Virus record (IMG/VR): IMGVR_UViG_3300027733_000047
Reading direction: 5' to 3' (one strand)
Origin: a virus
Taxonomy: Duplodnaviria > Heunggongvirae > Uroviricota > Caudoviricetes
DNA length: 64,000 bases
A program made the position numbers and the translations under genes. The stretch's first letter is position 1, and the number at the start of each line of letters is the position of its first letter. Shown piece by piece: positions 5,407 through 62,085 of the stretch. The notes under the pieces were generated by a model. It had not been told where the DNA came from and made no database searches. It worked only from the letters and a program-made list of their open reading frames with translations.

Positions 5407-5417
5407 ACCAAACTAAA

Positions 5418-5606: not shown

Positions 5607-5628
5607 TTTAAAAAAAGATTAAAAAAGA

Positions 5629-5728: not shown

Positions 5729-5782
5729 CCAATATATAAAAAAATTGTCAGATATTACTCTGACAATCATATTATAGTTTAT

Positions 5783-6190: not shown

Positions 6191-6293
6191 AATTTGAATG
6201 TTTAAATGTTAAAAGATAATGCAATTTAGCAAAATAAATTCAAAGCACCAAATTTATTTTCATATAATTTTTTTTATAATATATTGGTTTATA

Positions 6294-6412
6294 TCGCATA
6301 AAAAAAATATCGTGTAGGTTGGAGTATACTTCCCGATAGTGTATATCGTATTGCAACTTTGCTAAAGCAAAGATAAGGTAGTTTTTTCAAACTACCAAAT
6401 CTTTTGCAAAGT
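6294..6412 (-). ncRNA. mini-unit F (candidate sRNA)
   Basis: Minus strand TTTGG-N19-TTATCTTTG, then ctttagcaaagttgcaatacgatatacactatcgggaagtatactccaacctacacgataTTTTTTTT. Confidence 0.4.
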
Positions 6413-9162: not shown

Positions 9163-9307
9163 TAGATTGTTTTAATTGTGAGATACAAATATAGGATTAA
9201 TAATTCAAACTACCAAATATTTTTTGAAGTATTTTTAAAATATTTTTTTGGTGGTCTGGAATTAATGTTGTATGTTTGCTTTGTTTAAATGAATAGGTTA
9301 AAAGATA

Positions 9308-17690: not shown

Positions 17691-18060
17691 AGTTAATTTG
17701 TTTTAATTGTGAGATACAAATATAAGATTAATTATTCAAACTACCAAATATTTTTTGAATTATTTTTTAGATTAATTAGTTTAAAAAAAGAAGGCAAGGT
17801 AGAAACCTCGCCTCGTTTTTAATCCGTACCCTATAAAAACTAACTTTTCAGTTAATCAATGCGAATATACTAAACTAAAAAGAAAATGTCAAGTATATGT
17901 AAATTATTTTTTTTGCAGAATAAAACTGCCTCGCCTTCGGTAGCAAACCCACTATTCAGCAGTTGACCGTTTTGGTTATGTATTGCAAACCAACCCTCAC
18001 ATTCGTATATTATAACTTTCATAATGCAAATATAATGCTTTATTTTTAGATTACCAAATT

Positions 18061-24280: not shown

Positions 24281-24333
24281 AATTTATTGTTTTTAGATTG
24301 CAAATATAAGGTTAAAAATCCACACTACCAAAT

Positions 24334-32804: not shown

Positions 32805-33701
32805 TTAAGCAAGGCTCAACTCGTTTAAAGCAAATTCAAAACTTGCTTGGTTTTTCTTATACGATGTACCAACCAACATGTTTTCCCAATCACCATTTAC
32901 ACGCTTGGGTGCTTTTCTCTCATGTGTTGTCCATGATGTAACACCACTGTGTAACCCCCACATGTTCATTCCCTTCTGCTCCATTTCCTTATTGATGTGT
33001 GTGTATAAATCATCCATGATGTTAATCGACTTTTGTGTTAACTTGTCGAATTCAGCAATGCTGGTAATTACTCTATCATAACCCAATACACTCTTAACCA
33101 TTTTATCGGCTAATCCTTTTGATACTTCTGTAGATACAAATCTACGATATCTCTCAACTTGGCGAAGGCTCTCACCTAATGCTGTTTCAATCAGGGAAGG
33201 AATCGATTTGATTTTCTCATTCAATGTCGCTGTATGTCTAAACTTCGCGTTACCTTCTCTATAGAAACGGAAAAACTGATTCATACAACTCATAGTCAAA
33301 TCACCAATACCAACACTTAACCCTGTACTACCATCATTGCTGTCTATGATTGTAACATAACGTTTGATGATGTCATCACCTACTTTGCTGTCACCTTCGA
33401 TAGCCAACTGCATAAACACCCTACGACCACCATTGATACTTCCAGCCTTGGATACAGTTAACTCACTACCAAACTTCTCCATACCGCGTAATACCATCTC
33501 AACCACATCTGCATTCTGCGATACAGTATAACCTTCTTTTACTGTATTGATACACTCATTCGTTGAACTGTTAAATAAACCGTAATACGGTGTTATCATT
33601 TGCTCACCTTGGTTATTGTGCGCAATCAAGGGCGCTTTCTCAATAGTGAAATCTAAACCATGTACAGATAAAATGTCTTGTACTTTCTCATTGTAATTCA
33701 T
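32805..33701 (-). CDS. DUF932-like phage/plasmid protein
   Basis: 298 aa; IIDSNDGSTGLSVGIGDLTMSCMNQF resembles DUF932 core; paralog of 7821..8687; promoter 33730-33770. Confidence 0.45.
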   Translation of the reverse strand: MNYNEKVQDILSVHGLDFTIEKAPLIAHNNQGEQMITPYYGLFNSSTNECINTVKEGYTVSQNADVVEMVLRGMEKFGSELTVSKAGSINGGRRVFMQLAIEGDSKVGDDIIKRYVTIIDSNDGSTGLSVGIGDLTMSCMNQFFRFYREGNAKFRHTATLNEKIKSIPSLIETALGESLRQVERYRRFVSTEVSKGLADKMVKSVLGYDRVITSIAEFDKLTQKSINIMDDLYTHINKEMEQKGMNMWGLHSGVTSWTTHERKAPKRVNGDWENMLVGTSYKKNQASFEFALNELSLA

Positions 33702-48256: not shown

Positions 48257-48498
48257 TGTTTTGTGTGTTTTTTAAAGTAAAAAAATAAATGTTTAGTGTG
48301 TAAAATAATGCTTATCAAAATTAATGATAGCAATAGTCCTTCGAATAGGGTGATAAAGATGCTTTGTTGTTGTGACATCAAGCTACCCAACATATCAATG
48401 AATATTGCTGATAGCGCGAGGTGAACAAAGGCCCCTAAAATTTTAAATAATAATTCCATGTGTTTAAGTGTATTAGAATACAAATATACTAAACGCAT
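48253..48498 (-). CDS. small membrane protein
   Basis: Hydrophobic; start overlaps SPFH stop. Confidence 0.5.
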   Translation of the reverse strand: MRLVYLYSNTLKHMELLFKILGAFVHLALSAIFIDMLGSLMSQQQSIFITLFEGLLLSLILISIILHTKHLFFYFKKHTKQ

Positions 48499-48530
48499 TT
48501 TGATTATCCAAATAAAATTTGATTTATTTT

Positions 48531-49901
48531 TTAATTAAATTGGATAGGGCTAGGTGGTGATGGTAATGGATGAACAATTACGGGTTGTTGTATTGTTGCA
48601 CTGCAGAGTGTTCCAACGGTTGTTGCTGTTAGACTAACATTAAATGTTCCAGCACTTGAATAGATGTGAGTTGGGTTTGTAAGTATTGATGTTGTGTTGT
48701 CACCAAAACCCCATTGATATGTTATTGAGTGGTTTGGTATTTGGGGTGTTGTATTCGTGAATACAGTAGTACCACCCAAACAAACTGGTGGTACATTAAA
48801 ACTTGGGTCTGGTGTTGGCTCTATAGTAACTATTATCGTTGTATCTCTTCCGCATCCTAAGTTAGATGATATGTATAAATTTACAGAATAGGTACCAGCT
48901 TGAAATGTATGGATTGGATTTTGTAATGTAGATATTGTACCATCATCAAATGTCCATAAGTAATTAATTGGTGAGTAGCTAGCAGAGCTGGTATTTGTAA
49001 ATTGTACTACCCCAGCACAGTTTGGTGTATATGTGAAGTTTGGAAACCCAGGGGCCATATCTAAAATATAGTACAGCGTTAATTGACACCCTAGAAAGGT
49101 TGTAACTTGACATGTGATTGTATCGTATAATTGTGGGTTGATTGTTGTGCTTTGTGTTGTATCTCCATTCTCCCAAAGATAACTAGCAAAACCACCTAAG
49201 CCATCTATCGTTAATGTTGTATCATTTTCACAATATGTTACGTGGTTAGTTGATTGACCACATTGAACAGCATCTATATAAGCGTAGCCGTAGTGTCCTC
49301 TAAGTCTGCAGTCACCTGTTTCAAATTCAAGTGTCACTGATTGTCCAACATAAGCACTTAAGTCAACTGCCACTTCAGTCCAATCTCTCCAAGCAACCGA
49401 AACAGTATCTGGCGGGTTTGGCCCACAATATTGAAACCCAGCCAAATTTGATGCTGCTGTTACGGTATAGTCAGTACAAGGTATAACGGTGCCGTTTGCT
49501 AATCTAACTCTAGATTGAAATCTAGGTTGGTCTGCTACCAAGTGGTTTGGGTCTTGGAATACCACAGCATATGCGTATCTAATGATTGTTGTTGCTGGTG
49601 TTACTGTAAATTGATAATAAAGTGCTTCTGCTTGAGCACCTACTCTATTATTTCCGAGTCTAGCTGAGTATGTACCTTGGTAAACTGTTCTTAATCCGCC
49701 ACATGTGTTTGGGTCAGTACCTTGTGTCATTATTGTTTGTCTGTTTGCTCCAAAACCATTTGTTGGTAATACGATTGGGCAGCATGTGCCTAGTCTGGCT
49801 GACCAACCAGTAAAGTTACCAAGTTCAAAATCAGTATTACCACATTGCGAATATGTTGCAACGGAAATGAATAATGATATAATAAATAAAACGTTTTTCA
49901 T
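48531..49901 (-). CDS. secreted protein with C-terminal PKD repeats
   Basis: Signal peptide MKNVLFIISLFISVATYSQ; two PKD-like units (YLWTFDDGT...NPIHTFQAGTYSVNL; YQWGFGDNT...NPTHIYSSAGTFNVSL); GC-richer than the phage background. Confidence 0.65.
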   Translation of the reverse strand: MKNVLFIISLFISVATYSQCGNTDFELGNFTGWSARLGTCCPIVLPTNGFGANRQTIMTQGTDPNTCGGLRTVYQGTYSARLGNNRVGAQAEALYYQFTVTPATTIIRYAYAVVFQDPNHLVADQPRFQSRVRLANGTVIPCTDYTVTAASNLAGFQYCGPNPPDTVSVAWRDWTEVAVDLSAYVGQSVTLEFETGDCRLRGHYGYAYIDAVQCGQSTNHVTYCENDTTLTIDGLGGFASYLWENGDTTQSTTINPQLYDTITCQVTTFLGCQLTLYYILDMAPGFPNFTYTPNCAGVVQFTNTSSASYSPINYLWTFDDGTISTLQNPIHTFQAGTYSVNLYISSNLGCGRDTTIIVTIEPTPDPSFNVPPVCLGGTTVFTNTTPQIPNHSITYQWGFGDNTTSILTNPTHIYSSAGTFNVSLTATTVGTLCSATIQQPVIVHPLPSPPSPIQFN

Positions 49902-49907
49902 AATTTA

Positions 49908-50105
49908 TTAATAACGAGGAGATGAAAGTCTTAGGGGGTCAATTGTTCTTGTTTCCCTTCTATCTAACCTACGTATTTGTCTTTCGTACTTTCTAGTATT
50001 AGTTTCAAATTTATGTCTTGGGTTTGCCGCAGCATATGGTGACATATATGTAGTACAGCCATTTGAAATGGCAATAATAAAAATTAAAATAAATATTTTT
50101 TTCAT
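49908..50105 (-). CDS. small lipoprotein
   Basis: MKKIFILIFIIAISNGC lipobox. Confidence 0.5.
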   Translation of the reverse strand: MKKIFILIFIIAISNGCTTYMSPYAAANPRHKFETNTRKYERQIRRLDRRETRTIDPLRLSSPRY

Positions 50106-50662
50106 CGTATTAAAATTAAATTTCCTTTTTTAAAACCTGTTTTACCGTCAATTCCTTTCCACCAACATTGAAAAACAAAATTAAAGATTCCTTGTTGTGC
50201 ACCTTTATATATTCCATTCCATTTATCACCCAATTTATTTGTTTGATAAACCATCTCCCCGTATCTATTATATACCTGCCAACGAATTTCGGTTATTTTA
50301 AACGGAATTGGTGACCAAGCGTCATTAAGCCCATCTCCATTAGGTGTAAATGCGTTAGGAAAAAATATTGCCGATTCTGGACATTTTACAACCTTTACCC
50401 GATATATTCTAGTTGGGTTGCCGCATTCATCTTTATAATAGACTCTTATTAGATAATATCCTGTATCTCTCCAAGTTATTCTAACATTTGAATTTGTTGA
50501 TATTGTATCGCTATTAAGTGTCCATAACCAACCACCACTACTTGTTGATGCATTTGCCCAATAGTTAAAAGTATTCCTAACGTTTGGACATAGTTCAATC
50601 TCTTGCTGAGCTTTTACCGACAGGCTCACCGTAATTAATAATATAGATATGATATATCTCAT
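50102..50662 (-). CDS. secreted protein with T9SS type-B C-terminal sorting domain (CHU_C / gliding-motility-associated CTD)
   Basis: Signal peptide; C-terminus FFPNAFTPNGDGLNDAW...VYNRYGEMVYQT...WNGIYKG...GIFNFVF...GNLILIR matches the TIGR04131-type signature (FTPNGDGINDxF ... IFNRWG..VF ... WdGtykG ... GvYvY ... GtvtLiR). Confidence 0.75.
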   Translation of the reverse strand: MRYIISILLITVSLSVKAQQEIELCPNVRNTFNYWANASTSSGGWLWTLNSDTISTNSNVRITWRDTGYYLIRVYYKDECGNPTRIYRVKVVKCPESAIFFPNAFTPNGDGLNDAWSPIPFKITEIRWQVYNRYGEMVYQTNKLGDKWNGIYKGAQQGIFNFVFQCWWKGIDGKTGFKKGNLILIR

Positions 50663-51207
50663 TAATCATGTTGTATTGGGCTTATTGTTGGTAATGGATT
50701 TACAACCACAGGATTGGTAACGCTAAACGTACAACCACCTAGGCTATATGTATATGTTACGTTTGATGTACCTACACCTGCTGTTGTTGGGCAGAATTGG
50801 TTACCAGTTACACCATTTCCAGACCAGATACCGCCATCAGGTGAGCCAACTAAGGTCACACAAGGTGCGTTAACACAGAACGGTCCAGATTGAAATGTTG
50901 GTGTTATGTTTAGCACAAACACATTTAAAAGGACTGGTGGGCCTACGCAACCAAATTCATTGGTTGGGAAAACGGTCACAGCATTTGTTATTAGGCCAGC
51001 GTTTGCTGTACCCCAATCAACGGTGATTATGTGTGTTCCTTGGCCTGAGGTAATGATACCTGGGCTGGCTACGGTCCAAGTATATGTATTATTTGGTACG
51101 TTTACAACCTGATATGTAGAGCTATTTGAACGATAACAAACAGTATCTGTTTGTGCTTTAACCAAAAAAGGTGTAAAAAATAGGAGGATAAAGAGTAACT
51201 TTTTCAT
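50662..51207 (-). CDS. secreted Ig-like/Cys-rich protein
   Basis: Signal peptide MKKLLFILLFFTPFLVKAQ; ends PLPTISPIQHD, similar to the PKD protein C-terminus PLPSPPSPIQFN. Confidence 0.55.
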   Translation of the reverse strand: MKKLLFILLFFTPFLVKAQTDTVCYRSNSSTYQVVNVPNNTYTWTVASPGIITSGQGTHIITVDWGTANAGLITNAVTVFPTNEFGCVGPPVLLNVFVLNITPTFQSGPFCVNAPCVTLVGSPDGGIWSGNGVTGNQFCPTTAGVGTSNVTYTYSLGGCTFSVTNPVVVNPLPTISPIQHD

Positions 51208-51257
51208 TGGGATTAGGGTTTACTATAAATATTTTATTAAGCAACAAAAGTACCGAA

Positions 51258-51983
51258 TTATATTGTAATTATTTTTAAATTATCATCCCCATCTAAAATT
51301 ATAGCTGTCCTATTTTCAACCCAGTCCCCAGAGTTAAGATAATGGTCATTGTTGATGACCAAATCTGAGGGTTGGTGTATATGTCCGCATATTACACCAT
51401 TGCAATCTTTTTTGTGTGCCATCTTTATTGCGGCATTCTCAAAGTCATTTATATAATTGGTAGCTTGTTTAACACTTGCTTTAATTTTTTGGGAAATTGA
51501 CTGATATGGAAGTTTTCTCCATGCTCTGTATCGATTATACCATCTGTTTAACCATAGGGCCATATCGTATCCAACTGAACCAATCTTTGCTAACCATTTA
51601 TATTTGCTAATAAAAACATCTATTACATCACCGTGGAATATATAATATTTTTTATCTTTAACATTCAGGATATAGTCCTCAACAATCATTATGTTTCCAA
51701 AACTAGAACCAATGAATTCAGCTATGAATTCGTCGTGATTACCTCTAATCCAAACTACTTTTATCTTGTTTGATAGCTTTAATATCTTGGATATAACCAT
51801 CGTATGTTTCTTTTTCCATTTTGAGCCTCTATTTAACGCCCAACCATCAATGATATCACCATTTAGAATTAATAATTCAGTTGGATTATTGTCCAGAAAT
51901 TCAATAAAGTCTTTGGCTTTAGAGTCTTTGGTCCCAAGATGTAAATCAGATACGATTATAGCTTTGGATTTCATATTCCACAA
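51258..51983 (-). CDS. LpxH-family metallophosphoesterase (UDP-2,3-diacylglucosamine hydrolase-like)
   Basis: SDLHLG...NGDIIDGW...RGNHDEF...FHGDVID...GHIHQP...NSGDW: calcineurin-like motifs in LpxH order. Confidence 0.6.
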   Translation of the reverse strand: MWNMKSKAIIVSDLHLGTKDSKAKDFIEFLDNNPTELLILNGDIIDGWALNRGSKWKKKHTMVISKILKLSNKIKVVWIRGNHDEFIAEFIGSSFGNIMIVEDYILNVKDKKYYIFHGDVIDVFISKYKWLAKIGSVGYDMALWLNRWYNRYRAWRKLPYQSISQKIKASVKQATNYINDFENAAIKMAHKKDCNGVICGHIHQPSDLVINNDHYLNSGDWVENRTAIILDGDDNLKIITI

Positions 51984-52059
51984 AATAGTTTTGTTAGAAT
52001 TATTAAAACGGCTGCTGTTGTTACAACAATAAACTCAAATTTGATATCAACTTTCTTTT

Positions 52060-52758
52060 TCATCGCCAATAATTAAAATCTTTTTTAAAAAACTCGTCGT
52101 TATTTCTATTCCACCAGCACATAACCATTAGTTTAATCATATACCATAAACCTTTTTCCTCAAATCTTCTAGAAGGAGTATGAACAAATAGATTCGAAAT
52201 CTTAAACCTTTTAGTGTTAATTTTTGAGCTAATGTGGTAGTCTTCTGCAATTTTATCCTCATTATTAAATCCTCCAATTTTATTAAATGCATCGGTTTTA
52301 AACATCATAAACCCACCCAATGCGAATGGGGTTGTTTTAGAACTAAACCATTGTATAGTATTAAATATTTTGTAAACCCAATCAAATTTACCGTCAAATG
52401 TTTTAAATTTACAAGTCAGCAAATCATAGTCATTTTCAACCATTTCTTTTAAACATTTAACAATTAATTCATTATCGTATATGTGTATGTCAGCATCAAG
52501 AAATAAAACATAGGGTGTTTTTACCAGTTTGGCACCGTTGTTTCTAGCCACGGATGGTAGGCCACCATCAATTATTGTTACTTGCGAACTATATTTTTTT
52601 TGATATTTTTTTAGTAGTATGGTGCTGATTTCATCGTTTGATGAATCCGCAATAATTACTTTAAACTTTTCAGTTTGTTGTACAATAAAAATGAGGGTGT
52701 CTATTACTAAACGACCCTCATTTTTACTAGGTATTACTATGGTTATATCTTTATTCAT
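52060..52758 (-). CDS. family-2 glycosyltransferase
   Basis: ITIVIPSKNE N-terminus and LFLDADIHI (DxD) motif. Confidence 0.6.
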   Translation of the reverse strand: MNKDITIVIPSKNEGRLVIDTLIFIVQQTEKFKVIIADSSNDEISTILLKKYQKKYSSQVTIIDGGLPSVARNNGAKLVKTPYVLFLDADIHIYDNELIVKCLKEMVENDYDLLTCKFKTFDGKFDWVYKIFNTIQWFSSKTTPFALGGFMMFKTDAFNKIGGFNNEDKIAEDYHISSKINTKRFKISNLFVHTPSRRFEEKGLWYMIKLMVMCWWNRNNDEFFKKDFNYWR

Positions 52759-52800
52759 ACATATAAATATTGATATTTTTATATAAATTTTTAAAAAATG

Positions 52801-53154
52801 TTAATAACAAACTGTACCAATAAGATTATAGTTAGTTGTTATTTCATCCCCAATATTAATATCGATTGACGCAACAGTAGTTAAAGTATCTGGTTCAATT
52901 GTGTTTGGGTTATCGCTATGATTCATAAATCTATCATTATCTAATGAACATTTCCAAACATCATCTAAAAAATAACAATAGTGTTTAATATATTCTTTTT
53001 GTAGTTGTGGTAACTGTTCGTATTCTTGTTCAGTAAATTTTTTTGTGAAAATTGATTCTTTAAATATTACAGTTCCTTTAGGGATAAATTCATCGGCAAA
53101 TAGTCCGATACCATTAATCGCGCTTTCTTTTAACTTTGTTTTTACTCTTAACAT
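52801..53154 (-). CDS. SET-domain protein (putative protein lysine methyltransferase)
   Basis: 117 aa with GIGLFADEFIPKGTVI (GxG), RFMNHSDNPN (NHSCxPN-like) and GDEITTNY (ELxFDY-like) in SET order. Confidence 0.6.
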   Translation of the reverse strand: MLRVKTKLKESAINGIGLFADEFIPKGTVIFKESIFTKKFTEQEYEQLPQLQKEYIKHYCYFLDDVWKCSLDNDRFMNHSDNPNTIEPDTLTTVASIDINIGDEITTNYNLIGTVCY

Positions 53155-53513
53155 AATTTTTTAATATTGTGTGGTTTTGGTCTACCTTCATCATCTAATA
53201 ATACAAATACTATTTTATCTATCTTGATTATTGTTTCTTTGGTTGTCTTGCATCTAACGTCACACGCTAGAGTAATAGAAGTAGTACCTATGCTGACTAG
53301 TTCGGTACCAAACTCTACTATGTCTCCTTGCTTAGCCGTCTTAACAAAATTGACTTCACTCATTGCTTTGGTTACGATGTTAGGTGAACCTAGCTGACAT
53401 ATAGCAAAGATAGCAGCCTCTTCATCAATCCATTCTAATACCCTTCCCCCGAAGAGTGTACCTCTTGAGTTTAGGTCACCTGGTTTTACTAGTTTTCTTG
53501 TTCTGTATTTCAT
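53148..53513 (-). CDS. hotdog-fold acyl-CoA thioesterase
   Basis: LNSRGTLFGGRVLEWIDEEAAIFA resembles the 4HBT/YbgC acyl-CoA hydrolase core. Confidence 0.55.
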   Translation of the reverse strand: MKYRTRKLVKPGDLNSRGTLFGGRVLEWIDEEAAIFAICQLGSPNIVTKAMSEVNFVKTAKQGDIVEFGTELVSIGTTSITLACDVRCKTTKETIIKIDKIVFVLLDDEGRPKPHNIKKLC

Positions 53514-53540
53514 ATTTTATTTTGTTTTAACTACTTTAAA

Positions 53541-53759
53541 TTAAGATTTTTCAAGTAATGAATTATCCAATTCTATACCTAAACCAAATAGTGATTTTTC
53601 GATTACTTCACGTATTGTCAATGTTGTATCTTCTTTCATAATATTTAAACAAACTAACATAAGTTCATTTGTTCTATCAATTTGATTAATGAATTTAATC
53701 ACATAATCAATAAATTTTAAATCGTCAAAATTTTTCATAATTTTCCAAGATGTTTCCAT
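53541..53759 (-). CDS. hypothetical protein
   Basis: 72-aa ORF. Confidence 0.45.
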   Translation of the reverse strand: METSWKIMKNFDDLKFIDYVIKFINQIDRTNELMLVCLNIMKEDTTLTIREVIEKSLFGLGIELDNSLLEKS

Positions 53760-53762
53760 TTT

Positions 53763-54113
53763 TTATTTTATTTTAACTACTTTAAATAATCCTTTCTCTA
53801 TTGTGTAACCGTTATTAATAAAATGTTTTAGGCTATCGACATTGCAGTGGGCATAAACTATTTTATCTGTATCTTTAATTTTTGAATCTCTGTAGTTCCA
53901 CAATAGTTTATATATCCCTTTGCTCCTGTGTTCTTCTTTAACATAGGCATGACATAAGTAGATTACAGATTCGTGTTCAACATAAGATACAACACCAACC
54001 AATTCATTTTTAATTAGGCATCCGTAGTAAGTAGCGTGTTTATCTAATAGGTCAGGTTTGAGTTCTTTAAACTCATCCTCAACATCATTATATGTAATCT
54101 TTTTAATTTCCAT
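53763..54113 (-). CDS. GNAT-family N-acetyltransferase
   Basis: VGVVSY...HAYVKEEHRSKGIYKLL resembles GNAT motif A. Confidence 0.45.
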   Translation of the reverse strand: MEIKKITYNDVEDEFKELKPDLLDKHATYYGCLIKNELVGVVSYVEHESVIYLCHAYVKEEHRSKGIYKLLWNYRDSKIKDTDKIVYAHCNVDSLKHFINNGYTIEKGLFKVVKIK

Positions 54114-54302
54114 TGGTTAATTACTTTACTCTTTTTTTAATTTCCAATAATTCTGCGGCAGTTTCGTAATCTTCTTCGTTAACAGATAATTTTTCGGCAT
54201 CCTCACAAATTTCTTTTAACATATCAACAATAAAATATCTAATCTCTTCTTTACTTTTACCTTTGAGGTTTTCTAATATTTTTTCTTTTTCTGTCATATA
54301 AT

Positions 54303-55433
54303 TTAATTAGAAAGTGGCATTTTTATCGCTGGATGACTTTGATATCCTTCAATAATAAAATCACCGATTTCATAATGTGCGATATCATCAACTTTACTAT
54401 CTAATATTTTTAACTTTGGTAATGGATATGGTTCTCTTGTTAATTGTTCTACAACACCTTCCTTTTGATTCAGGTAAATATGACAATCTCCCATATTTGC
54501 AATTAATTCATCAGGAACCATATTAACTTCTTTGGCTATGATTTCTAAAAGTAGAGCATAACTTGCGATGTTGAATGGTGTGCCTAACGGAACATCTTGA
54601 CTTCTAGTATTATACATTAAAGAGATTGCTCGGGTTGGTAGGTTATTATCAAGTAATTTATTCGTCCAAGCATTCACATCTCCAACTGATTTGAACTCGG
54701 GTACTACAATCTCACCTTTTTCTCTCTTTTGATTAAAAATTGAAACTCTCTCTTCAATACTTAACTCTCTCGTATAAAATTGAAAATCAGTATGACAGGG
54801 TGGAAGCGTCATTTTTTGTAACTCACCTACATTCCAAGCATTAACTTTATTGCGTCTAGAATCTGGGTCTATTTTAAGCAAATTGATTGAATTTGCGATT
54901 TGGTCTATGGTCTGTTTTTCCATATATCTCAACCCATTGCCATTAGGTATTTCCAAATCATGATTAACCCAACTTCTCCACTGTCTACCATAAATTGGTC
55001 CTAAATCTCCCCACTTCTTAGCAAACTCGTCATCGGTTTTGATTTTGTTGATGAACTCTTCTTGTGATAGAATTTTTATCTCTGAAAGATATTCTTGATA
55101 TCTCTCCTCAGTCGAAAATGATTTTTGTAATTTATTAGCGTGTTCCCACCCTTTCAAATACGCTTTATAAGCATCGCCATCCCATATATGACATCCATTA
55201 TCAACAAGGTATTTGATATTGGTATCACCACGTAAGAACCATAGTAGTTCTGTCACCATAGTTTTCCAAGCCATCTTCTTTGTTGTTAGTAATGGAAATC
55301 CTTCGCTCATTTTGTGGCGGATTTGTCTACCGAATACGCTTATGGTTCCTGTACCAGTGCGGTCTTTCTTTTCAACTCCATTATGGATTATATCCTGAAG
55401 TAGTCTTTGATATTGTTTGTCGATGTTATTCAT
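54303..55433 (-). CDS. thyA: thymidylate synthase (ThyA, long form with L. casei-type insertion)
   Basis: DRTGTGTISVFG, WGDLGPIYGRQWRSW, DPDSRR, LPPCH (catalytic Cys), PFNIASYALL; 376 aa, with the insert before WGDLG. Confidence 0.85.
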   Translation of the reverse strand: MNNIDKQYQRLLQDIIHNGVEKKDRTGTGTISVFGRQIRHKMSEGFPLLTTKKMAWKTMVTELLWFLRGDTNIKYLVDNGCHIWDGDAYKAYLKGWEHANKLQKSFSTEERYQEYLSEIKILSQEEFINKIKTDDEFAKKWGDLGPIYGRQWRSWVNHDLEIPNGNGLRYMEKQTIDQIANSINLLKIDPDSRRNKVNAWNVGELQKMTLPPCHTDFQFYTRELSIEERVSIFNQKREKGEIVVPEFKSVGDVNAWTNKLLDNNLPTRAISLMYNTRSQDVPLGTPFNIASYALLLEIIAKEVNMVPDELIANMGDCHIYLNQKEGVVEQLTREPYPLPKLKILDSKVDDIAHYEIGDFIIEGYQSHPAIKMPLSN

Positions 55434-55439
55434 AATCTT

Positions 55440-55718
55440 CTATTGTTTTTTAAATTCATATCTAACACTATAAATAGTATCTTCAATCCAATCATCTTGA
55501 CTATTTCCATTTGCTATTTTGCCTATCCAAGATTTAATCTCATATAGATAAACAACATCGGGATTAACTCTTTCTAGTTCTTTAAACCACAAACTCATAC
55601 CACCATCTGCTTCTCTATACATTGATTCCTTAACACACCATTTTTCACCTAAATATTGTACATTGTCTAGTGTTGTGTATTCGTCTTGAAGTGGTTTTTT
55701 TACTATTTTAAGTTCCAT
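55440..55718 (-). CDS. hypothetical protein
   Basis: 92-aa ORF. Confidence 0.5.
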   Translation of the reverse strand: MELKIVKKPLQDEYTTLDNVQYLGEKWCVKESMYREADGGMSLWFKELERVNPDVVYLYEIKSWIGKIANGNSQDDWIEDTIYSVRYEFKKQ

Positions 55719-55724
55719 AATCTT

Positions 55725-55946
55725 TTATTGTATTTCTTCGAAAGGTAAATCTTCGAGAATCCAAGTTATTAATTCTCTATCGATTATTTCTTTCCATATA
55801 CCGTCTTCAAGTATAAAAAAGTCACTACCTTTGCTATGTTCGCTAAATCTTATCTCCTGTTGTACACCATTTTTATCTTCTATGGTGCACTCTTTAGTTT
55901 CCATATAGTAAACTACTTCAGGTTCAGTTTTTAATTTGTATTGCAT
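55725..55946 (-). CDS. hypothetical protein
   Basis: 73-aa ORF. Confidence 0.5.
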   Translation of the reverse strand: MQYKLKTEPEVVYYMETKECTIEDKNGVQQEIRFSEHSKGSDFFILEDGIWKEIIDRELITWILEDLPFEEIQ

Positions 55947-55953
55947 ATCTTTA

Positions 55954-56340
55954 TTATTGAGTTGTTTCGTATTCGTACATTACCATATCTTCTGGGTATA
56001 GTATAGCGTATAACATGTGTGTGCTTATTTCTGGTTTAAACTTCTTCATCAAGAACATACACTTGTTGCCATCCTTATCGATACATTTCCAAGTATAGCA
56101 TACGTGGGTGTCGTAAGTTGTCTTATCAGGTGTATCGTATGTCCTGAATTTATAGGAACCTATTTTAATATCCCACTCATTAATAATGATGAACATATCA
56201 GTTGGTTGGTTGGAAGATATTATATTCCATTTATCGCCGTCCCATGTGCTTTTGGTAATATTTGTAACCCTGTTAAAGTCTTGAGAATAACTAAAGAGTG
56301 TTGTGAGTAGACTTACTACTATGAGTGATAATTTTTTCAT
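55954..56340 (-). CDS. secreted hypothetical protein
   Basis: Start moved to internal MKKLSLIVVSLLTTLFSYSQ signal peptide (ATG 56338-56340), which resolves the overlap with 56345..56584. Confidence 0.5.
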   Translation of the reverse strand: MKKLSLIVVSLLTTLFSYSQDFNRVTNITKSTWDGDKWNIISSNQPTDMFIIINEWDIKIGSYKFRTYDTPDKTTYDTHVCYTWKCIDKDGNKCMFLMKKFKPEISTHMLYAILYPEDMVMYEYETTQ

Positions 56341-56344
56341 TTTT

Positions 56345-56584
56345 TTAATGTGATTCAATATGTTTATAAAAAAGGTTTGTAATTTCGTCGCATTCTTCTT
56401 GGGTTTCATTATACTCCATATCAGAAAACATAACACCATGTACAAACCAACCATCATCTATATCCCATTCACTATAGATTATAAATTCTTTTCCATCAGA
56501 TGTATGGCCGATAAATTTCTGAACCATTGATAATGTTTCTGGTTCTTTTAGATTGATATTCATGTTTAAAATTTTATAAAACAA
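56345..56584 (-). CDS. hypothetical protein
   Basis: 79-aa ORF. Confidence 0.45.
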   Translation of the reverse strand: MFYKILNMNINLKEPETLSMVQKFIGHTSDGKEFIIYSEWDIDDGWFVHGVMFSDMEYNETQEECDEITNLFYKHIESH

Positions 56585-56644
56585 ATATACGTATACAACT
56601 ATAAAAATGCAAGAGTTATTAATAATTTGTGGACAATGTTGAGG

Positions 56645-56989
56645 TTAAAGATATATTTGTACCAAAACAATACATAACGCTAAGAATATAGATACACTTA
56701 CTTTAAGTGTTATTGGTTCTCCGAATAGATACCTACTCATCAAGGCAAATACTATCATACCTAAGCTGAATCCAATAAATCTGCTAGGCCATATTTTTCC
56801 ATCAAATGCTATAACAAAGTATTCGACAGATTTTATGTACAACCAAGATAGGGGAATCGCTGCGGCTAACAATAATACAGGATACTTTTGATACCAACCA
56901 TATTTTATGTTACCCTGCAATTGAAGAAACGTACCGATTTGCGCAATAAGACCATAAATAATACCTAAACTTAAACTATTCCAATTCAT
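56645..56989 (-). CDS. membrane protein
   Basis: Multiple TM helices. Confidence 0.55.
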   Translation of the reverse strand: MNWNSLSLGIIYGLIAQIGTFLQLQGNIKYGWYQKYPVLLLAAAIPLSWLYIKSVEYFVIAFDGKIWPSRFIGFSLGMIVFALMSRYLFGEPITLKVSVSIFLALCIVLVQIYL

Positions 56990-57161
56990 TATTCTTCATC
57001 TTTAATTGTTTTTTTTTCAAGTCCTTCTAAAATTGTAACTGGTACGAATGTAATCCAAAATTCCCAAGTTGAAGGACCATAACCGAAATAACCCAAACAA
57101 CCACCAAGCCATACTGACCAAAGAATTCCATAAATTGTACTTTTTTTCATATGTTTATTTT

Positions 57162-57587
57162 TTATCCGATTTCATCTCGGTTTATTTGTGAATAATTAAA
57201 TGCTCTTTGTCTGTACATTGCTTCGTCCAATATATCTAGCGCGGCAGGTAATGCTGCTCTATCATCTAAGAAGTGGTTGCAATAAGGTTTACTACCTTTT
57301 TGGCCGTAGGGTAACTCGATTGGTGTTTGGTTGATTGAATCAACCTTGATACCAATTTTATCGCAATACTCCATTATATGTTGGTGTCTATCTTCGTTGC
57401 ACGCTGTGTGTATAACGGTGTAGCAGCCAACCCCTTGACACTCCTTTAGAAGCTTGATTGTTCTATCGATATCTTCTTGGTTATCTAGAGTATGGTAAGG
57501 TGAAATGGTGCTGTCAAAATCCACACCTATGATTATCTTACCATGAGATTGCCATTCTTGTACTAGGCGGTCTATATATTTTTTCAT
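57162..57587 (-). CDS. HAD-superfamily phosphatase-like protein (possible nucleotidase)
   Basis: GVDFDSTIS (DxDxT motif I). Confidence 0.4.
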   Translation of the reverse strand: MKKYIDRLVQEWQSHGKIIIGVDFDSTISPYHTLDNQEDIDRTIKLLKECQGVGCYTVIHTACNEDRHQHIMEYCDKIGIKVDSINQTPIELPYGQKGSKPYCNHFLDDRAALPAALDILDEAMYRQRAFNYSQINRDEIG

Positions 57588-57595
57588 GTTTATAA

Positions 57596-57805
57596 TTATT
57601 TTTTATCTTTTATAAATTCATTGTAAAGTAATTCCCAATCGTCAGATAAATAATCTTTTTCTCCGAGCCATTTAAAGACATCTTTGATTGTAAATCCATT
57701 AACGGATTTGGTCATTGTTTCTCTGTATGTTGGTGATACGTTTTTAAATTCATGACCACATTGACAAGGGGTTGACCAGCATTCTGAACAATCTGATAAT
57801 GCCAT
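57596..57805 (-). CDS. small Cys-rich zinc-finger-like protein
   Basis: CSECWSTPCQCGH. Confidence 0.45.
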   Translation of the reverse strand: MALSDCSECWSTPCQCGHEFKNVSPTYRETMTKSVNGFTIKDVFKWLGEKDYLSDDWELLYNEFIKDKK

Positions 57806-57806
57806 A

Positions 57807-58286
57807 TTAAAGTGTTTTTAATTCTTGTTTAACAAGTGTTAGTGCTTGACCTAATAGGTTTAAGCCAAACCAATATGATGGATTATCAATACCTTCGGCA
57901 TCTTCTGCCAACCCTATACCCCAGATGTTATCTAGTGGTGATGCTTCAACAAAGATTCTATCTTCGGTTTCTAACATTTGTTCTTTAAGGTCTTGGTTCT
58001 GACTAAACTTAGCCAAGTTGCCTTCGTAAACGATGGCCAAGCAATTCTTATCCCAAATAGCTTTGTCAAAGTTTCTAATCATTCTGCCGAATCTTTTTTG
58101 TTCTCTTGGGTTTTTTTCTTCCATGATTTGTTCAGCGATTTCCATGTCATTGAATAACAAGGCTTTCTGATACATCATGTATTGTTCGCATGAATTGTAT
58201 TCAATCCCATCGATTGTCATGTCGGCTTTATGCCATTGGGAATATATCCCATTCCAGAAGAATACGTATTTGTCTGTTATTTTCAT
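57807..58286 (-). CDS. NADAR-domain protein (YbiA-like)
   Basis: FFWNGIYSQW...IDGIEYNSCEQYMMYQKALLF...GNLAKFSQN...VEASPLDNIWGIG matches the NADAR/DUF1768 pattern. Confidence 0.7.
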   Translation of the reverse strand: MKITDKYVFFWNGIYSQWHKADMTIDGIEYNSCEQYMMYQKALLFNDMEIAEQIMEEKNPREQKRFGRMIRNFDKAIWDKNCLAIVYEGNLAKFSQNQDLKEQMLETEDRIFVEASPLDNIWGIGLAEDAEGIDNPSYWFGLNLLGQALTLVKQELKTL

Positions 58287-58290
58287 TTTA

Positions 58291-58632
58291 TTAATTTTTA
58301 TATTCTACATATGTTATTTTAATTCCTAAGTCTTTTGCGTAAGCTATTTCTTCGGCTACGCCCTTAGATTTGTCCCAACCTTCCATCATGTAAACAATCA
58401 TTTCATCACATCTATTTAAGAATGTCAGACAAAAGTTTTCCCAAAAAGGCCAATCGGTTGGCATGTCAGGTTGAAAGTTTACTGCGGTATGTCCGTATAG
58501 TATTGGGCTAAAAGCTACAACGCCATTGTTGATAAGTTCAGCTGTATACTTGGAAACCTTTTGATAGTTTTCTTCTCTAACATTGTCATCAGGATGACTA
58601 TATGGAGATGAAACAAAGATTAGTTTTCTCAC
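58291..58632 (-). CDS. DUF4406 / nucleoside 2-deoxyribosyltransferase-like protein
   Basis: IFVSSPYS... ...CDEMIVYMMEGWDKSKGVAEEIAYAKDLG pattern. Confidence 0.5.
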   Translation of the reverse strand: MRKLIFVSSPYSHPDDNVREENYQKVSKYTAELINNGVVAFSPILYGHTAVNFQPDMPTDWPFWENFCLTFLNRCDEMIVYMMEGWDKSKGVAEEIAYAKDLGIKITYVEYKN

Positions 58633-59408
58633 TTCAAACGATTTTTAATTTCAGTTAATGTTGTTTGGTTTTCAAAGTTACCATCTAGGTAAAGTGTTTT
58701 CAATTGACCTTTGGTTTCTGTTTCCCAAGTTACTTTATCGAATAGTTTTAATTCACCATCGTCATCATTTTTACCAACGTACAAAAGTCCTGTAGCTGAT
58801 TTCTTCATACCATCATCTGTAATTGGGTCTTTAAAGATTTCACGACCTTCAAAATTAACCTCAACATATGTTGCTTTCATTGCAAACCCGAATGTATCGC
58901 GAGTGTTGAATTGGTAAGTGAATGAACCAACACCCAACACGATATTTGTGCTTGCAAATCCTTTTGCTTCTAATCTAGAACAGATTTCTTCTGCTCTGTC
59001 GATTGTGATGCTGTCACCATAGATTGCACCGATGTGTGAATCTAGGACCTTGTAACCTTGTTCGTTAATGGTTCCACCGAATACATCCCAAAGCAATTCA
59101 ATAACTCCTTTGTAAGATGGGTCTTCGTCATCAACTAAACTTACCATTTTAGAACGGGTATTATATCCGCAAACAATATCAACAGGGTCGCCTGAATCAG
59201 GACGTATTACCAATTTACCATCACGAGCTAGGATTTCTTCTTTGAGAATAGGTAAATACTCTGTACACATTCTCCAGAGGTCAAATGTATCACTTACCAT
59301 ACTAAGTATTCCTGTAGGATATTTTGCTAATAACCCTCTAATACCGTTTAATTCATCAGTAACTGTTTTTGTTACAGTTCTTTTTCTAGTTTCAATAACT
59401 TTTTTCAT
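58629..59408 (-). CDS. nicotinamide phosphoribosyltransferase-family protein, C-terminal half (split gene)
   Basis: KLVIRPDSGDPVDIV, IVLGVGSFTYQ, EIFKDPITD align with the NAMPT C-terminal half (LIIRPDSGNPLD, IAFGSGGGLLQ, NVFKDPVAD). Confidence 0.75.
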   Translation of the reverse strand: MKKVIETRKRTVTKTVTDELNGIRGLLAKYPTGILSMVSDTFDLWRMCTEYLPILKEEILARDGKLVIRPDSGDPVDIVCGYNTRSKMVSLVDDEDPSYKGVIELLWDVFGGTINEQGYKVLDSHIGAIYGDSITIDRAEEICSRLEAKGFASTNIVLGVGSFTYQFNTRDTFGFAMKATYVEVNFEGREIFKDPITDDGMKKSATGLLYVGKNDDDGELKLFDKVTWETETKGQLKTLYLDGNFENQTTLTEIKNRLK

Positions 59409-60476
59409 TATTTAAGTTTTAATTATACTTTTATTTATTCCTTTCTAAAAAATCCATCACTTCAATTTCTTTTGGAACATCTATATTTTTGAACTGTTCT
59501 TTGAACTTTTCAATTAGATGGTCAGCAATTTCCATTGATTCTACCGTAAATTTTATTCTTGTAATATCATCTGGATAATTCTCAAAATTTTCATCTTCGT
59601 ATTTTAAATAATATACTTTCATTGTTTAGGTTGTTTAAGTTTAGAATACAAATATACGAACAATATTTGAAATAACAAAATTAATTTTAAAGGTTTGTAT
59701 TAATTTAATACATTTTTTAGTTTTTTTATGTCTTTTGTGTAGGTAGTAGATATTTATTAGTATGAACCACGAACAAATATACAATAAAATCATTAATAAC
59801 GCAAAATCTCAAATAAGGTCTAAAAAAGATTCTTATTTTGAAAGACATCACATTATCCCTAAAACCGCTGGTGGTGATAATTCAAAAGAAAATATCGTTC
59901 TACTAACAGCTAAAGAACACTTTGTTTGCCACCGTCTATTATGTTTCATATACCCTGAATCAAAATCCCTACGTTTTGCTTTTTGGGCGATGTGTAACCA
60001 ATTAAAAGGCGATGTTAAACGAGATTATAAAGTAACATCAAGAACATACGAAGATGCAAAACTAAAATTCAAAGAAGTTAATTCATCTTTACATAAAGGT
60101 AAAAAACTTTCAGACGAACATCTGTTAAAAATTACCAAAAGAATGTTATCTGATGATAATCCAATGAAAGGTAGAAAAGGTTCTGATAATCCATTATATA
60201 AAAAAGAACGAAGTGAATACACCAAATCTAAAATTTCAAATACCAAACTCTTAAACCCAACAAAAAATTGTAATTTTAAAGGCTTATATGTTACACCTTT
60301 AGGTAAGTTTTATACTTCGGCAGAAGCATCTAAAATACATAAATTAGATAGGTCTGTCATAATTGAAAGATGTAAAGTAAAGTCCGATAAAGTTATTACA
60401 AAAAAAGGTGTATTCTTTTCTAAAGATTTAACAATTAATGATATTGGTAAAACATATAAAGAGGTTGGATGGGATT
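59409..60476. mobile_element. homing-endonuclease-bearing insertion splitting the NAMPT-family gene
   Basis: About 1.07 kb separates the N- and C-terminal NAMPT halves; it contains the HNH ORF and one small ORF. Confidence 0.55.
59431..59622 (-). CDS. hypothetical protein inside the insertion that splits the NAMPT gene
   Basis: 63-aa ORF with promoter variant 59640-59690. Confidence 0.45.
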   Translation of the reverse strand: MKVYYLKYEDENFENYPDDITRIKFTVESMEIADHLIEKFKEQFKNIDVPKEIEVMDFLERNK

Positions 60477-60499
60477 TTATATCTCAACCTCAGAAATAA
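59762..60499 (+). CDS. HNH homing endonuclease
   Basis: FERHHIIPKTAGGDNSKENIVLLTAKEHFVCH HNH motif; plus strand between the two NAMPT halves. Confidence 0.7.
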   Translation: MNHEQIYNKIINNAKSQIRSKKDSYFERHHIIPKTAGGDNSKENIVLLTAKEHFVCHRLLCFIYPESKSLRFAFWAMCNQLKGDVKRDYKVTSRTYEDAKLKFKEVNSSLHKGKKLSDEHLLKITKRMLSDDNPMKGRKGSDNPLYKKERSEYTKSKISNTKLLNPTKNCNFKGLYVTPLGKFYTSAEASKIHKLDRSVIIERCKVKSDKVITKKGVFFSKDLTINDIGKTYKEVGWDFISQPQK

Positions 60500-61307
60500 T
60501 GTTTCCATTATCATCATAAGTTATCTCTACTTTATATTCTTCTTCAACTTCAACCTTTTTAAACTCGGTTATAGAGCACATTACCGAGTGTTCGGTTGCG
60601 TTTACGCTACCACCAACGAATCCTGTTTCACCATAATACTTTCTAGCACCGCCGATAGCTGGCAATGAATCGGTACCTGAGAATGATGTCAAGTGACCTA
60701 ACCCTGAGCTTATTGTTGCATCGATTGAATCCAATCCTCTCATTGAGAAATCATGTCCTTGCCAGTCGATAAACCATGCTCTTTCAGCATCAGTTTTTTC
60801 TTGCCACTTGGTTAATACCTTACGATATTGGTGAGCGATGGTAGCAGATGTTGTTGGTTTCCACAAAAGGTTTGAAATGATTGTTTCAAGGTAATTTGTT
60901 ATCCAATAGAAATCAGGATGTGTGTTGTGGATTGTAAGAATAGGAATTCTCATTGGTACTAGTGTTCCTTCTTCTAGTATCTTTACATGGATAGGTAAGT
61001 AACCCAAGTCATGTAGTTTTTCAAAGTGTGTAACATCGTAATCGGTACCTAAGTACATTGATAGTTCGCGTTTAATTTCACCACAAACTTCAGATTTCAT
61101 TCTATTAAAGAAATCATCTCTGAATGCTTCGTTGATTTGTTTCATTACCATTTGTTGACCAAATGATACAACTTTATCACAACCCTTTGGAGCGTATTTG
61201 TTGCTACGTGGTGTAAAGTTTGAATAAACTAATGTTGTACCTTGTGGATACATTTGATGGTGTGCTGTTTTATAACCATCGGTAAGTAAAAGTGGATTGA
61301 TTTTCAT
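60477..61307 (-). CDS. nicotinamide phosphoribosyltransferase-family protein, N-terminal half (split gene)
   Basis: INPLLLTDGYKTAHHQMYPQGT ... FSGTDSLPAIGGARKYYG ... ATEHSVM align with the NAMPT N-terminal half (NILLATDSYKVTHYKQYP ... FKGTDTVAGLALIKKYYG ... AAEHSTI); the C-terminal roughly 30 aa do not align. Confidence 0.75.
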   Translation of the reverse strand: MKINPLLLTDGYKTAHHQMYPQGTTLVYSNFTPRSNKYAPKGCDKVVSFGQQMVMKQINEAFRDDFFNRMKSEVCGEIKRELSMYLGTDYDVTHFEKLHDLGYLPIHVKILEEGTLVPMRIPILTIHNTHPDFYWITNYLETIISNLLWKPTTSATIAHQYRKVLTKWQEKTDAERAWFIDWQGHDFSMRGLDSIDATISSGLGHLTSFSGTDSLPAIGGARKYYGETGFVGGSVNATEHSVMCSITEFKKVEVEEEYKVEITYDDNGNIISEVEI

Positions 61308-61317
61308 AATTTTATTT

Positions 61318-62085
61318 TTAAAAATGTGTATAAATTGTTAAGTTAGATAATTCGTATTTATCGTATTTGCTATTGGTGCAATAGATTTTTTCGTATAGGT
61401 TTTCTAATTCTTTATTAGGGTTAGGCACAGTAATGTGACTTACTGCAAGATAAAGCTTACCAACATTTTTTGTTTTAAGTAGCTTGGCCAAGCCTACAAA
61501 TGTTCCACCGAACACACATAAGTCATCTAGGACTAGGATGTCAGCACCTTCAAAATCTTCTTTGTCGATGGTTTGTGTCAATTTGTGTGTTACCAAATCT
61601 CTAGACTTGCTAGCAGCATATACGCCACCTTCGTGATGTAATGTATCAGCAAGTTTGTTAATCCATTTGAATGACCCAGCGTCTGTTGATAAGAAGATGG
61701 GTGTTGATTTGATATCTTCCAATACAGAACCGATAAAGATAGAGTTATCTATAACCCTGCTGTTATTTAAACCCATTAGGGTTGAATCGCTATGTGGGTG
61801 ATATACATAAACCCTTGCAAAGTTGCATGAGTTGATAAAATCACATACCAATTTTAATTCAAACGATTGGTTGGTTTCAAATCTGCGGTCATGTTGTTGT
61901 TGAAACATGCAAGGGATTTTAAGAACAACATTTTGAATCTGATTAAAATCACATATGTCTTTAAGTGACTTGATAAAGAATAAATCTTCGTAGGTGTTGA
62001 TTCTTTCTGTGATTACTGGTTCTCTGAAATCGGTAATCTCTGCGTAAACGGTACCGTCTGGGTATTTGATTCGATTGTAAAGCAT
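61318..62085 (-). CDS. ribose-phosphate pyrophosphokinase-family protein (Prs / ADPR-PP-synthetase-like)
   Basis: KIPCMFQQQHDRR (compare YARQDRR), STDAGSFKWINKLA, ILVLDDLCVFGGT (compare DDIIDTAGT) in Prs order. Confidence 0.7.
   Translation of the reverse strand: MLYNRIKYPDGTVYAEITDFREPVITERINTYEDLFFIKSLKDICDFNQIQNVVLKIPCMFQQQHDRRFETNQSFELKLVCDFINSCNFARVYVYHPHSDSTLMGLNNSRVIDNSIFIGSVLEDIKSTPIFLSTDAGSFKWINKLADTLHHEGGVYAASKSRDLVTHKLTQTIDKEDFEGADILVLDDLCVFGGTFVGLAKLLKTKNVGKLYLAVSHITVPNPNKELENLYEKIYCTNSKYDKYELSNLTIYTHF

Follow-up and report, generated by a model that had tools for sequence, protein, structure and literature searches.

Most of what is known about SET-domain enzymes concerns the histone methyltransferases of eukaryotes and the effectors with which bacterial pathogens enter eukaryotic cells by injection. 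A virus-encoded member, vSET (PBCV-1 A612L, PDB 1n3j and 3kma), comes from a eukaryotic algal virus and methylates histone H3 (H3K27). Among prokaryotes, Go1-SET of Methanosarcina mazei methylates MC1-alpha and cpnSET of Chlamydia pneumoniae methylates Hc1 (PMC3980110). For SET proteins of phages no functional study was found in the literature, only annotation mention, as in the 'SET domain protein (ORF62)' of Stenotrophomonas phage Ps15 (PMC9025141). Here, a small SET-domain gene was studied in a stretch of DNA of 64,000 nucleotides (the window) from the IMG/VR virus record IMGVR_UViG_3300027733_000047, assigned to the Caudoviricetes. On balance, the sequence comparisons make it probable that this gene encodes a catalytically competent, stand-alone S-adenosylmethionine (SAM)-dependent methyltransferase, carried by a Bacteroidota phage and drawn from a populous family of minimal prokaryotic SET proteins that has moved repeatedly between bacterial chromosomes and phages.

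An earlier note on this DNA had placed a 117-residue open reading frame (ORF) with three SET motifs at positions 52,801 to 53,154. The ORF was found at exactly these positions on the minus strand, running from ATG to TAA, and the three motifs were all present in the order proposed. The gene and its predicted functional elements are the following.

52801 to 53154, minus strand: SET-domain gene from the ORF listing, ATG start, TAA stop (52801 to 52803), 117 amino acids.
53095 to 53112, minus strand: GIGLFA, residues 15 to 20, SET motif I (GxG), part of the SAM pocket by homology.
52978 to 52980, minus strand: Tyr59, second conserved predicted active-site aromatic residue, in the SET-I region.
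52903 to 52932, minus strand: RFMNHSDNPN, residues 75 to 84, the (R)FxNHS motif of the SET pseudoknot.
52828 to 52851, minus strand: GDEITTNY, residues 102 to 109, an ELxF/YDY-type motif, with Y109 as the predicted active-site Tyr and T107 at the Phe/Tyr-switch position.

The 117-residue protein is a member of the SET-domain superfamily. The search with the Pfam SET profile (PF00856) that had been suggested as a check returned an E-value (E) of 8.1e-15 and a score of 55.6 bits (gathering cutoff 22.4), with residues 15 to 110 of the protein spanning the full profile (positions 1 to 105 of 105). A single-sequence search of the PDB gave weak matches only, to Legionella LegAS4 and to NSD2 (E about 0.01 to 0.1), while a profile of 36 homologues (alignment A1) matched the MLL1 SET domain with E 1.4e-14, followed by MLL2-4, EZH1/2, NSD2 and SET8. 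Structure prediction, the second check suggested, gave an AlphaFold2 model from A1 with a mean predicted local distance difference test (pLDDT) score of 92.4 and a predicted template modelling (pTM) score of 0.80, uncertain only in the last ~8 residues. When this model was compared with the PDB using Foldseek, SET/PR-domain structures alone were retrieved, the top matches being S. pombe Set7, MLL1 and vSET (3kma; E 3e-6, target-normalised template modelling score 0.72). Alignment of A1 with vSET by hhalign, for which the vSET sequence was checked against the PDB and found identical to 1n3j, gave a probability of 96.8%, E 3e-10 and 23% identity over vSET residues 6 to 107. Neither of the two results named in the earlier note as refuting the identification, the lack of a SET profile match and an unrelated fold, was obtained. 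An NCBIfam scan of the protein produced LegAS4 as its sole match, below threshold, and no PHROGs family matched the protein. The SET annotation itself is correct but ordinary, close relatives having been annotated automatically already: several homologues carry the label 'SET domain-containing protein' from JGI or NCBI.

The conservation of individual residues was examined next to those of characterised enzymes. Among the 36 homologues, G15, I16, G17, L18 and F19 are invariant, as are R75, F76, N78, H79, E104 and Y109. The GIGLFA motif aligns with HGRGLF of MLL1 and GGYGVF of vSET, RFMNHSDNPN aligns with RFINHSCEPN of MLL1 and FNHSKDPN of vSET, and Y109 aligns with vSET Y105 and the last Tyr of MLL1 EELTYDY. 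A wider set comprised 71 viral copies, on IMG/VR viral contigs, and 79 genomic copies, from species-representative genomes. Here, N78, H79, E104 and D72 were present in every copy (71/71 viral, 79/79 genomic) and Y109 in 70 of the 71 viral ones; Y59, which aligns with vSET Y50 and with the Tyr of MLL1 GIGCYMF, is nearly invariant (56/71 viral, 71/79 genomic). D72 is a family-specific invariant of the small SET family, the further family invariants being M1, GIGLF, RFxNH, E104 and Y109. Since the invariant positions are those that bind SAM or line the lysine channel in characterised SET enzymes, the active site is predicted to be intact.

The residue T107 aligns with the first Tyr of MLL1 EELTYDY (Y3942), where most members of the family have Cys and vSET carries Ile. 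A residue other than Tyr at the Phe/Tyr switch, as in DIM-5 (F281), G9a (F1152) and the Y3942F form of MLL1, predicts that several methyl groups can be added. By analogy with these three enzymes, the small residue T107 would allow the addition of more than one methyl group.

The protein has neither a pre-SET nor a post-SET domain. The post-SET/Zn-cluster arrangement of the SUV39, SET1/MLL, SET2 and EZH classes comprises the Cys of NHSC together with a CxCx4C segment, and neither is found here: the motif reads NHSD, Asp81 standing where NHSC enzymes have the Zn-binding Cys, and beyond the catalytic Y109 there are only eight residues (NLIGTVCY). The protein resembles the post-SET/Zn-cluster lysine methyltransferases in its core only.

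The short tail after the catalytic Tyr and the lack of a post-SET domain could also be taken as signs of a pseudoenzyme or of cargo that the phage can do without: a SET-fold binding module or a copy being lost, with no methyltransferase activity. Inactive eukaryotic SET proteins do exist, MLL5 (PMC5094779) and SET-24 (PMC12886896) among them, and the corresponding region of Synechococcus phage SynMITS9220M01 is only partly annotated (a 64-residue coding sequence) and may be degraded. Loss of activity is nevertheless very improbable, given that the SAM-binding and catalytic residues are conserved in viral and cellular copies alike, that the ratio of nonsynonymous to synonymous substitution rates (dN/dS) is about 0.13 to 0.28, and that vSET is active with 119 residues and no post-SET domain, its PDB entry 1n3j being named histone H3 Lys27 methyltransferase. 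For the SET gene of the window, dN/dS was 0.21, 0.13 and 0.17 against relatives with 74%, 65% and 62% identity, respectively; the gene is under purifying selection, and the identical protein was found on 23 contigs from several samples. A SET protein that is conserved and under purifying selection in a phage with only a bacterial host would not be aimed at histones, which argues for a genuinely prokaryotic target of the family.

The distribution of the family was then considered. A word-index search recovered 157 homologues, all with PF00856 and mostly of 114 to 145 amino acids, a few reaching 175. The earlier note had called a SET methyltransferase in a phage unusual. This holds for isolates, in that 2 of 50,697 GenBank phage records contain a relative and no PHROGs family matches, but not for the wider collections, in which 71 IMG/VR viral loci (28 to 47% identity, many on contigs of 190 to 348 kb) and at least 525 bacterial or archaeal species genomes (pattern scan, one genome per species) contain one. 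The two GenBank records, which were the same whether the protein or the family consensus was used in tblastn, are a 636-kb uncultured huge phage and SynMITS9220M01, in which the region is under-annotated. In BFVD, several UniProt entries are named 'SET domain containing protein [uncultured Caudovirales phage]'. Among the genomic matches listed were Patescibacteria/Saccharibacteria, Alphaproteobacteria, Myxococcota, Bdellovibrionota, Cytophagales and a few DPANN archaea, with a best identity of 50%, and small prokaryotic SET proteins of 115 to 140 residues align over their full length with the SET protein at 38 to 50% identity. In the isolates Adhaeribacter terrigena and Rhodomicrobium udaipurense the SET gene lies among ordinary chromosomal genes (RecF, DciA, TonB, D-Ala-D-Ala carboxypeptidase). 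By its sequence, then, the SET gene reads as a phage-borne copy of a widespread small prokaryotic SET family, similar to vSET in size and architecture and remotely related to it.

The nearest neighbours of the viral copies were viral in 42 cases and cellular in 29, which points to repeated exchange. Single linkage at 55% identity or more placed the SET protein in a cluster of 31 members, all metagenomic proteins; none was present among the GTDB species genomes or the fetched IMG/VR loci, and all six members whose surroundings were examined (P0001, P0010, P0012, P0015, P0021 and P0022) have phage-like neighbourhoods. A recent gain from the host phylum was considered and rejected, because among the matches listed the Bacteroidota (Adhaeribacter and Cytophagales, 45 to 47%) are no closer than the Patescibacteria or Proteobacteria. 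In SynMITS9220M01 (locus L163, MT408532.1), a SET-like frame at 51730 to 52083 has 30 to 32% identity over 93 to 96% of the query; it is annotated only as a 64-residue hypothetical protein (51895 to 52089), just upstream of purM, and is either a mis-annotated or a decaying copy.

The phage origin claimed for the window was upheld by the way its genes are arranged, by its phage families and homing endonucleases, and by relatives found on IMG/VR viral contigs. The 64 kb contain ~133 ORFs that do not overlap; 122 lie on the minus strand, and the GC content is 27 to 37%. In a bulk Pfam scan of 98 further ORFs only 13 families were matched, an extreme level of orphan genes. Those recognised in the window include GIY-YIG and HNH homing endonucleases, the mycobacteriophage GP88 and L5 gp82 families, T4_Y16D and a ParB-like protein, together with NAMPT, a phosphoribosyl pyrophosphate (PRPP)-synthetase-like protein, NADAR and the thymidylate synthase ThyA. 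Matches of window proteins to PHROGs were as strong as E 1e-101. The genes flanking SET have relatives with 41 to 63% identity on a 190-kb IMG/VR viral contig (L017).

Were the window an island in a bacterial chromosome or some other mobile element, with SET as one of many bacterial copies, this would explain why no capsid, tail, portal or terminase gene was found within the 64 kb, and the SET family is indeed common in bacteria. Yet a single strand with ~120 small genes packed closely together, very few of them matching Pfam, several homing endonucleases, one of which splits NAMPT, and the phage-restricted families T4_Y16D, GP88 and L5 gp82 with their PHROGs matches are hard to reconcile with such an element, as are the flanking-gene relatives on the viral contig and the lack of any tRNA, rRNA or housekeeping gene in the window, in which Rfam also gave no match over the 64 kb. 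This origin is judged to be barely credible. With no structural or terminase gene in the window, its assignment to a phage, although strongly inferred, is not proven; the window is read as the early or accessory region of a large T4-like phage. A megablast search of positions 45 to 60 kb against the 50,697 phage records returned no near-identical phage genome, and a PADLOC scan for defence and anti-defence families gave no meaningful match.

The best link that was found between the window and cultured phages is a DUF932 protein (7821 to 8687), which is 53.7% identical to proteins of the Flavobacterium psychrophilum phages 6H, 1H, 2A and 23T. The window has two DUF932-type paralogues, at 7821 to 8687 and 32805 to 33701, both matching phrog_1221. 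PKD domains were found by scan in two encoded proteins, one of which (50102 to 50662) ends in a CHU_C type IX secretion system (T9SS) sorting domain. The CHU_C T9SS sorting domain is a Bacteroidota feature. Together with the promoter matches given below, these features identify the host as a member of the Bacteroidota, probably Flavobacteriia-like. The PKD proteins are phage-encoded and apparently meant for export via the T9SS of the host. Three consecutive genes make up this PKD-repeat region (48531 to 51207); their products have signal-like N termini, and relatives with 41 to 63% identity occur on the 190-kb contig.

Promoter sequences in the window were also searched for. The consensus TTTG-N17-21-TAnnTTTG, which we take to be the Bacteroidota promoter consensus (as in Bacteroides and Flavobacterium promoters), has 73 matches in the window against 5.1 ± 2.4 expected. 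About 55 of the copies are one conserved 32-nucleotide element (TTTGGTAGTTTGAATTTATTAATCTTATATTTG-like), located in intergenic gaps on the minus strand between 4,800 and 35,100. In the first 35 kb almost all gaps between genes contain the element, giving a dense array of host-type and presumably early promoters; from 36 to 64 kb it is almost absent. Three examples, and the match that lies nearest upstream of SET, are the following.

9186 to 9217, minus strand: 32-nucleotide promoter element.
17717 to 17748, minus strand: 32-nucleotide promoter element.
24301 to 24332, minus strand: 32-nucleotide promoter element.
59649 to 59679, minus strand: candidate promoter TTTG-N19-TAnnTTTG, nearest upstream match to SET, 26 nucleotides upstream of a 63-residue ORF.

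From 48,512 to 59,649 the minus strand has no match to the consensus; the next one lies at 48,481 to 48,512. This promoter-free stretch suggests that SET may be transcribed by the host RNA polymerase within a unit of ~11 kb, which would contain NAD+-salvage genes, NADAR, ThyA, the genes for a GNAT protein and a thioesterase, SET, and the genes for a GT2 protein, a phosphoesterase and the PKD/CHU_C proteins. Membership of such a unit would fit an early role in takeover or counter-defence. Scans for sigma-70-type promoters and for terminators near SET performed no better than shuffled sequence.

The NAD-related genes of this candidate unit form a cluster at 57807 to 62085, comprising the PRPP-synthetase-like gene (61318 to 62085), a split NAMPT gene, a DUF1937/nucleoside 2-deoxyribosyltransferase-like gene (58291 to 58632) and NADAR (57807 to 58286). 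The cluster resembles phage counter-defence genes for NAD+ reconstitution and reversal of ADP-ribosylation. Homologues of the PRPP-synthetase-like protein are present in 1,022 phage records. The two NAMPT halves match positions 12 to 272 and 262 to 494 of the 500 positions of phrog_448, and the split locus is laid out as follows.

60477 to 61307, minus strand: N-terminal half of NAMPT.
59762 to 60499, plus strand: HNH endonuclease.
59431 to 59622: 63-residue ORF.
58629 to 59408, minus strand: C-terminal half of NAMPT.

Because Rfam detected no group I intron, the gene looks to have been split by a free-standing homing endonuclease. The ThyA protein (54303 to 55433) is also unusual in form: it has 376 amino acids, ~96 residues beyond the covered profile span (residues 1 to 375 against positions 29 to 307 of 335 in phrog_160), and the version of the close relative L158 has 396. 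The excess length points to at least one large insertion in an enzyme that is usually compact.

The genes immediately around SET were identified as follows.

53148 to 53513: 4HBT thioesterase, YciA-like, upstream of SET, E 1e-14.
53148 to 53154, minus strand: overlap of seven nucleotides, ATGTTAA, between the start of SET and the stop of the thioesterase gene, from the ORF coordinates and the sequence.
53763 to 54113: GNAT, E 3e-7.
52060 to 52758: GT2, E 1.4e-15.
51258 to 51983: metallophosphoesterase, best NCBIfam match LpxH (68 bits; cutoff 134).

An overlap of start and stop codons of this kind is typical of co-translated phage genes. The seven-nucleotide overlap implies that SET and the thioesterase gene are co-transcribed, and makes translational coupling probable. 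SET had been described as sitting in a block of host-like enzymes, and the thioesterase, GNAT, GT2 and LpxH-like genes are indeed real, the metallophosphoesterase being, to judge from its score, LpxH-like without qualifying as an LpxH equivalog. They do not form a conserved module: in the 74% identical relative (L158) the upstream neighbour changes, with a pyridoxal phosphate (PLP) aminotransferase in place of the thioesterase, and at loci L159 to L162 and L166 the entire set is absent. The block was therefore rejected as an operon conserved with SET, since the neighbours vary among relatives. The GT2 and LpxH-like phosphoesterase genes (51258 to 52758 in the window) adjoin SET in both the window and L158, and a contig of 3,961 bp that carries P0022 (sample 3300059473) has the order GT2, phosphoesterase, SET, its SET protein being 61% identical. 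Phosphoesterase homologues with 34 to 38% identity also lie at most 5 kb from SET in five otherwise unrelated IMG/VR loci (including L009, L055, L060 and L061). The association of GT2 and phosphoesterase with SET is weak.

The protein might instead methylate a small molecule, an amino acid or another metabolite, perhaps together with the neighbouring thioesterase, GNAT, GT2 and phosphoesterase, or with the PLP aminotransferase of L158. The model for such an activity is BurB of Burkholderia thailandensis (PDB 9l4t), a stand-alone SET enzyme of 172 residues that S-methylates free methionine. Neither structure nor sequence placed the SET protein closer to BurB than to protein lysine methyltransferases, no genes of a sulfonium or dimethylsulfoniopropionate pathway were present in the window scans, and the aminotransferase, which is unassigned, adjoins SET in L158 only. 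A BurB-like function is quite unlikely, and a protein substrate is preferred.

At loci L159 and L160, SET (6001 to 6375) stands between ThyX (5155 to 5856) and a gene of the T4 Y00F family, and at L161, L162 and L166 it lies near DHFR and a sigma factor. ThyX is found near SET in 11 IMG/VR loci and the ribonucleotide reductase (RNR) alpha and beta genes in 7 to 9, so that in several independent phage lineages SET stands beside ThyA or ThyX, DHFR or RNR genes. When the ORFs within 4 kb of SET were clustered over 71 viral and 80 genomic loci, no family was common to more than 11 loci. Conserved neighbours were rejected as a clue to the substrate, the shared ThyX, RNR alpha/beta, DNA ligase, histidine kinase and SpeD genes representing lineage synteny. 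The notable recurrence of SET beside thymidylate, folate and RNR genes probably reflects a plastic early or accessory region for nucleotide metabolism in T4-like genomes.

The position of SET in a long unidirectional array with phage nucleotide-metabolism genes, repeated in those several lineages, is one of two points that would suit an active enzyme directed at a phage protein (a virion, internal or replication protein), with a role in maturation or protection instead of takeover. The other is that vSET is associated with the virus itself. The family is, however, abundant in chromosomal contexts with no phage genes nearby, as in the Adhaeribacter and Rhodomicrobium isolates, and abundance in ordinary bacterial chromosomes suggests that the ancestral target was cellular; moreover, no phage gene co-occurs with SET across lineages. 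A phage target is thus considered unlikely, if worth keeping in view. A phage-encoded substrate within the window, either HU or another nucleoid-associated protein, was sought and rejected, as none appeared in Pfam scans of ~120 ORFs.

A mechanism may be proposed for the preferred reading, an active protein lysine methyltransferase. By homology, SAM would be held in a pocket formed by the GxG turn (G15 to G17) and the pseudoknot loop at N78-H79, and the substrate lysine would enter from the opposite face through a narrow channel between Y59 and Y109, where the methyl group would be transferred by an SN2 reaction; T107 at the switch would permit further rounds, so that more than one methyl group could be added. 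Since there is no post-SET domain and the eight residues after Y109 are modelled with low confidence, the lysine channel is probably completed when the protein associates with itself, as vSET does in its dimer, or when the substrate binds. As histones are absent from a bacterial host, the target must lie among bacterial or phage proteins; modification of a host protein would take place during infection and serve takeover or counter-defence. In setting out these steps we infer that the enzyme is active and that lysine is the acceptor, and likewise the methylation state, the oligomerisation, when the gene would be expressed and which protein would be its target.

The SET protein has an isoelectric point (pI) of 4.8 and the family is acidic too (median pI about 4.8). 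An acidic enzyme would favour an abundant basic host protein as its target, such as a nucleoid-associated protein or a transcription or translation factor; the acidic pI is compatible with a basic target and is not evidence for one. HU or ribosomal proteins as substrates, which follow from the suggestion of the earlier note, are a conjecture. One tentative interpretation of these data, which we hold to be possible and still doubtful, is that lysine methylation serves as a chemistry of phage takeover or counter-defence, with SET expressed from a host-type promoter in the ~11-kb unit, together with the NAD+-salvage and NADAR genes, and methylating a specific bacterial protein (one associated with the nucleoid, a factor of RNA polymerase or translation, or one of immunity) so that the cell is redirected or disarmed. 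A host protein as target would place lysine methylation beside ADP-ribosylation, phosphorylation and acetylation as a covalent modification by which phages take over cells. If the takeover interpretation were true, the protein would be the first protein lysine methyltransferase of a phage for which a host target is defined, and a tractable way into the function of the small bacterial SET proteins, a very large family. The phage copy offers a compact, 117-residue gain-of-function handle for finding the target of that family.

The proposed role can be set beside known phage systems. Alt, ModA and ModB of T4 are phage ADP-ribosyltransferases that act early in infection, covalently altering proteins of host transcription and translation. 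The analogy with them is functional only, the fold and the chemistry, ADP-ribosylation, being unrelated. The Legionella effectors of the LegAS4/RomA type (PDB 5czy and 8sr6/8swi) share the SET domain and differ in most other respects: they have at least 450 residues, are multidomain with ankyrin repeats, are secreted and methylate eukaryotic histone H3, whereas the SET protein is a bare domain with no secretion signal.

The closest resemblance in form is to vSET, and the size comparison drawn in the earlier note proved apt. Both proteins are virus-encoded bare SET cores, of 119 residues in vSET and 117 here, with no Zn-binding Cys in the NHS motif and neither pre-SET nor post-SET domains, and their aligned residues include Y50/Y59, NHSKDPN/NHSDNPN and GEEITISY/GDEITTNY (vSET first in each pair). 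The 23% identity between them nevertheless denotes remote homology and no orthology, the small bacterial SET proteins being closer at 38 to 50%, and in contrast to the histone-bearing setting of vSET the host of the SET phage is bacterial. The best precedent for a non-histone target is provided by Go1-SET and cpnSET, which are prokaryotic and methylate DNA-associated proteins of their own cells. These enzymes are cellular and not phage-borne, and the Bacteroidota have neither MC1 nor Hc1. The true family of the SET protein is that of the small prokaryotic SET proteins of Patescibacteria, Alphaproteobacteria, Myxococcota, Cytophagales and some DPANN archaea, which have the same invariant residues and are similarly acidic.

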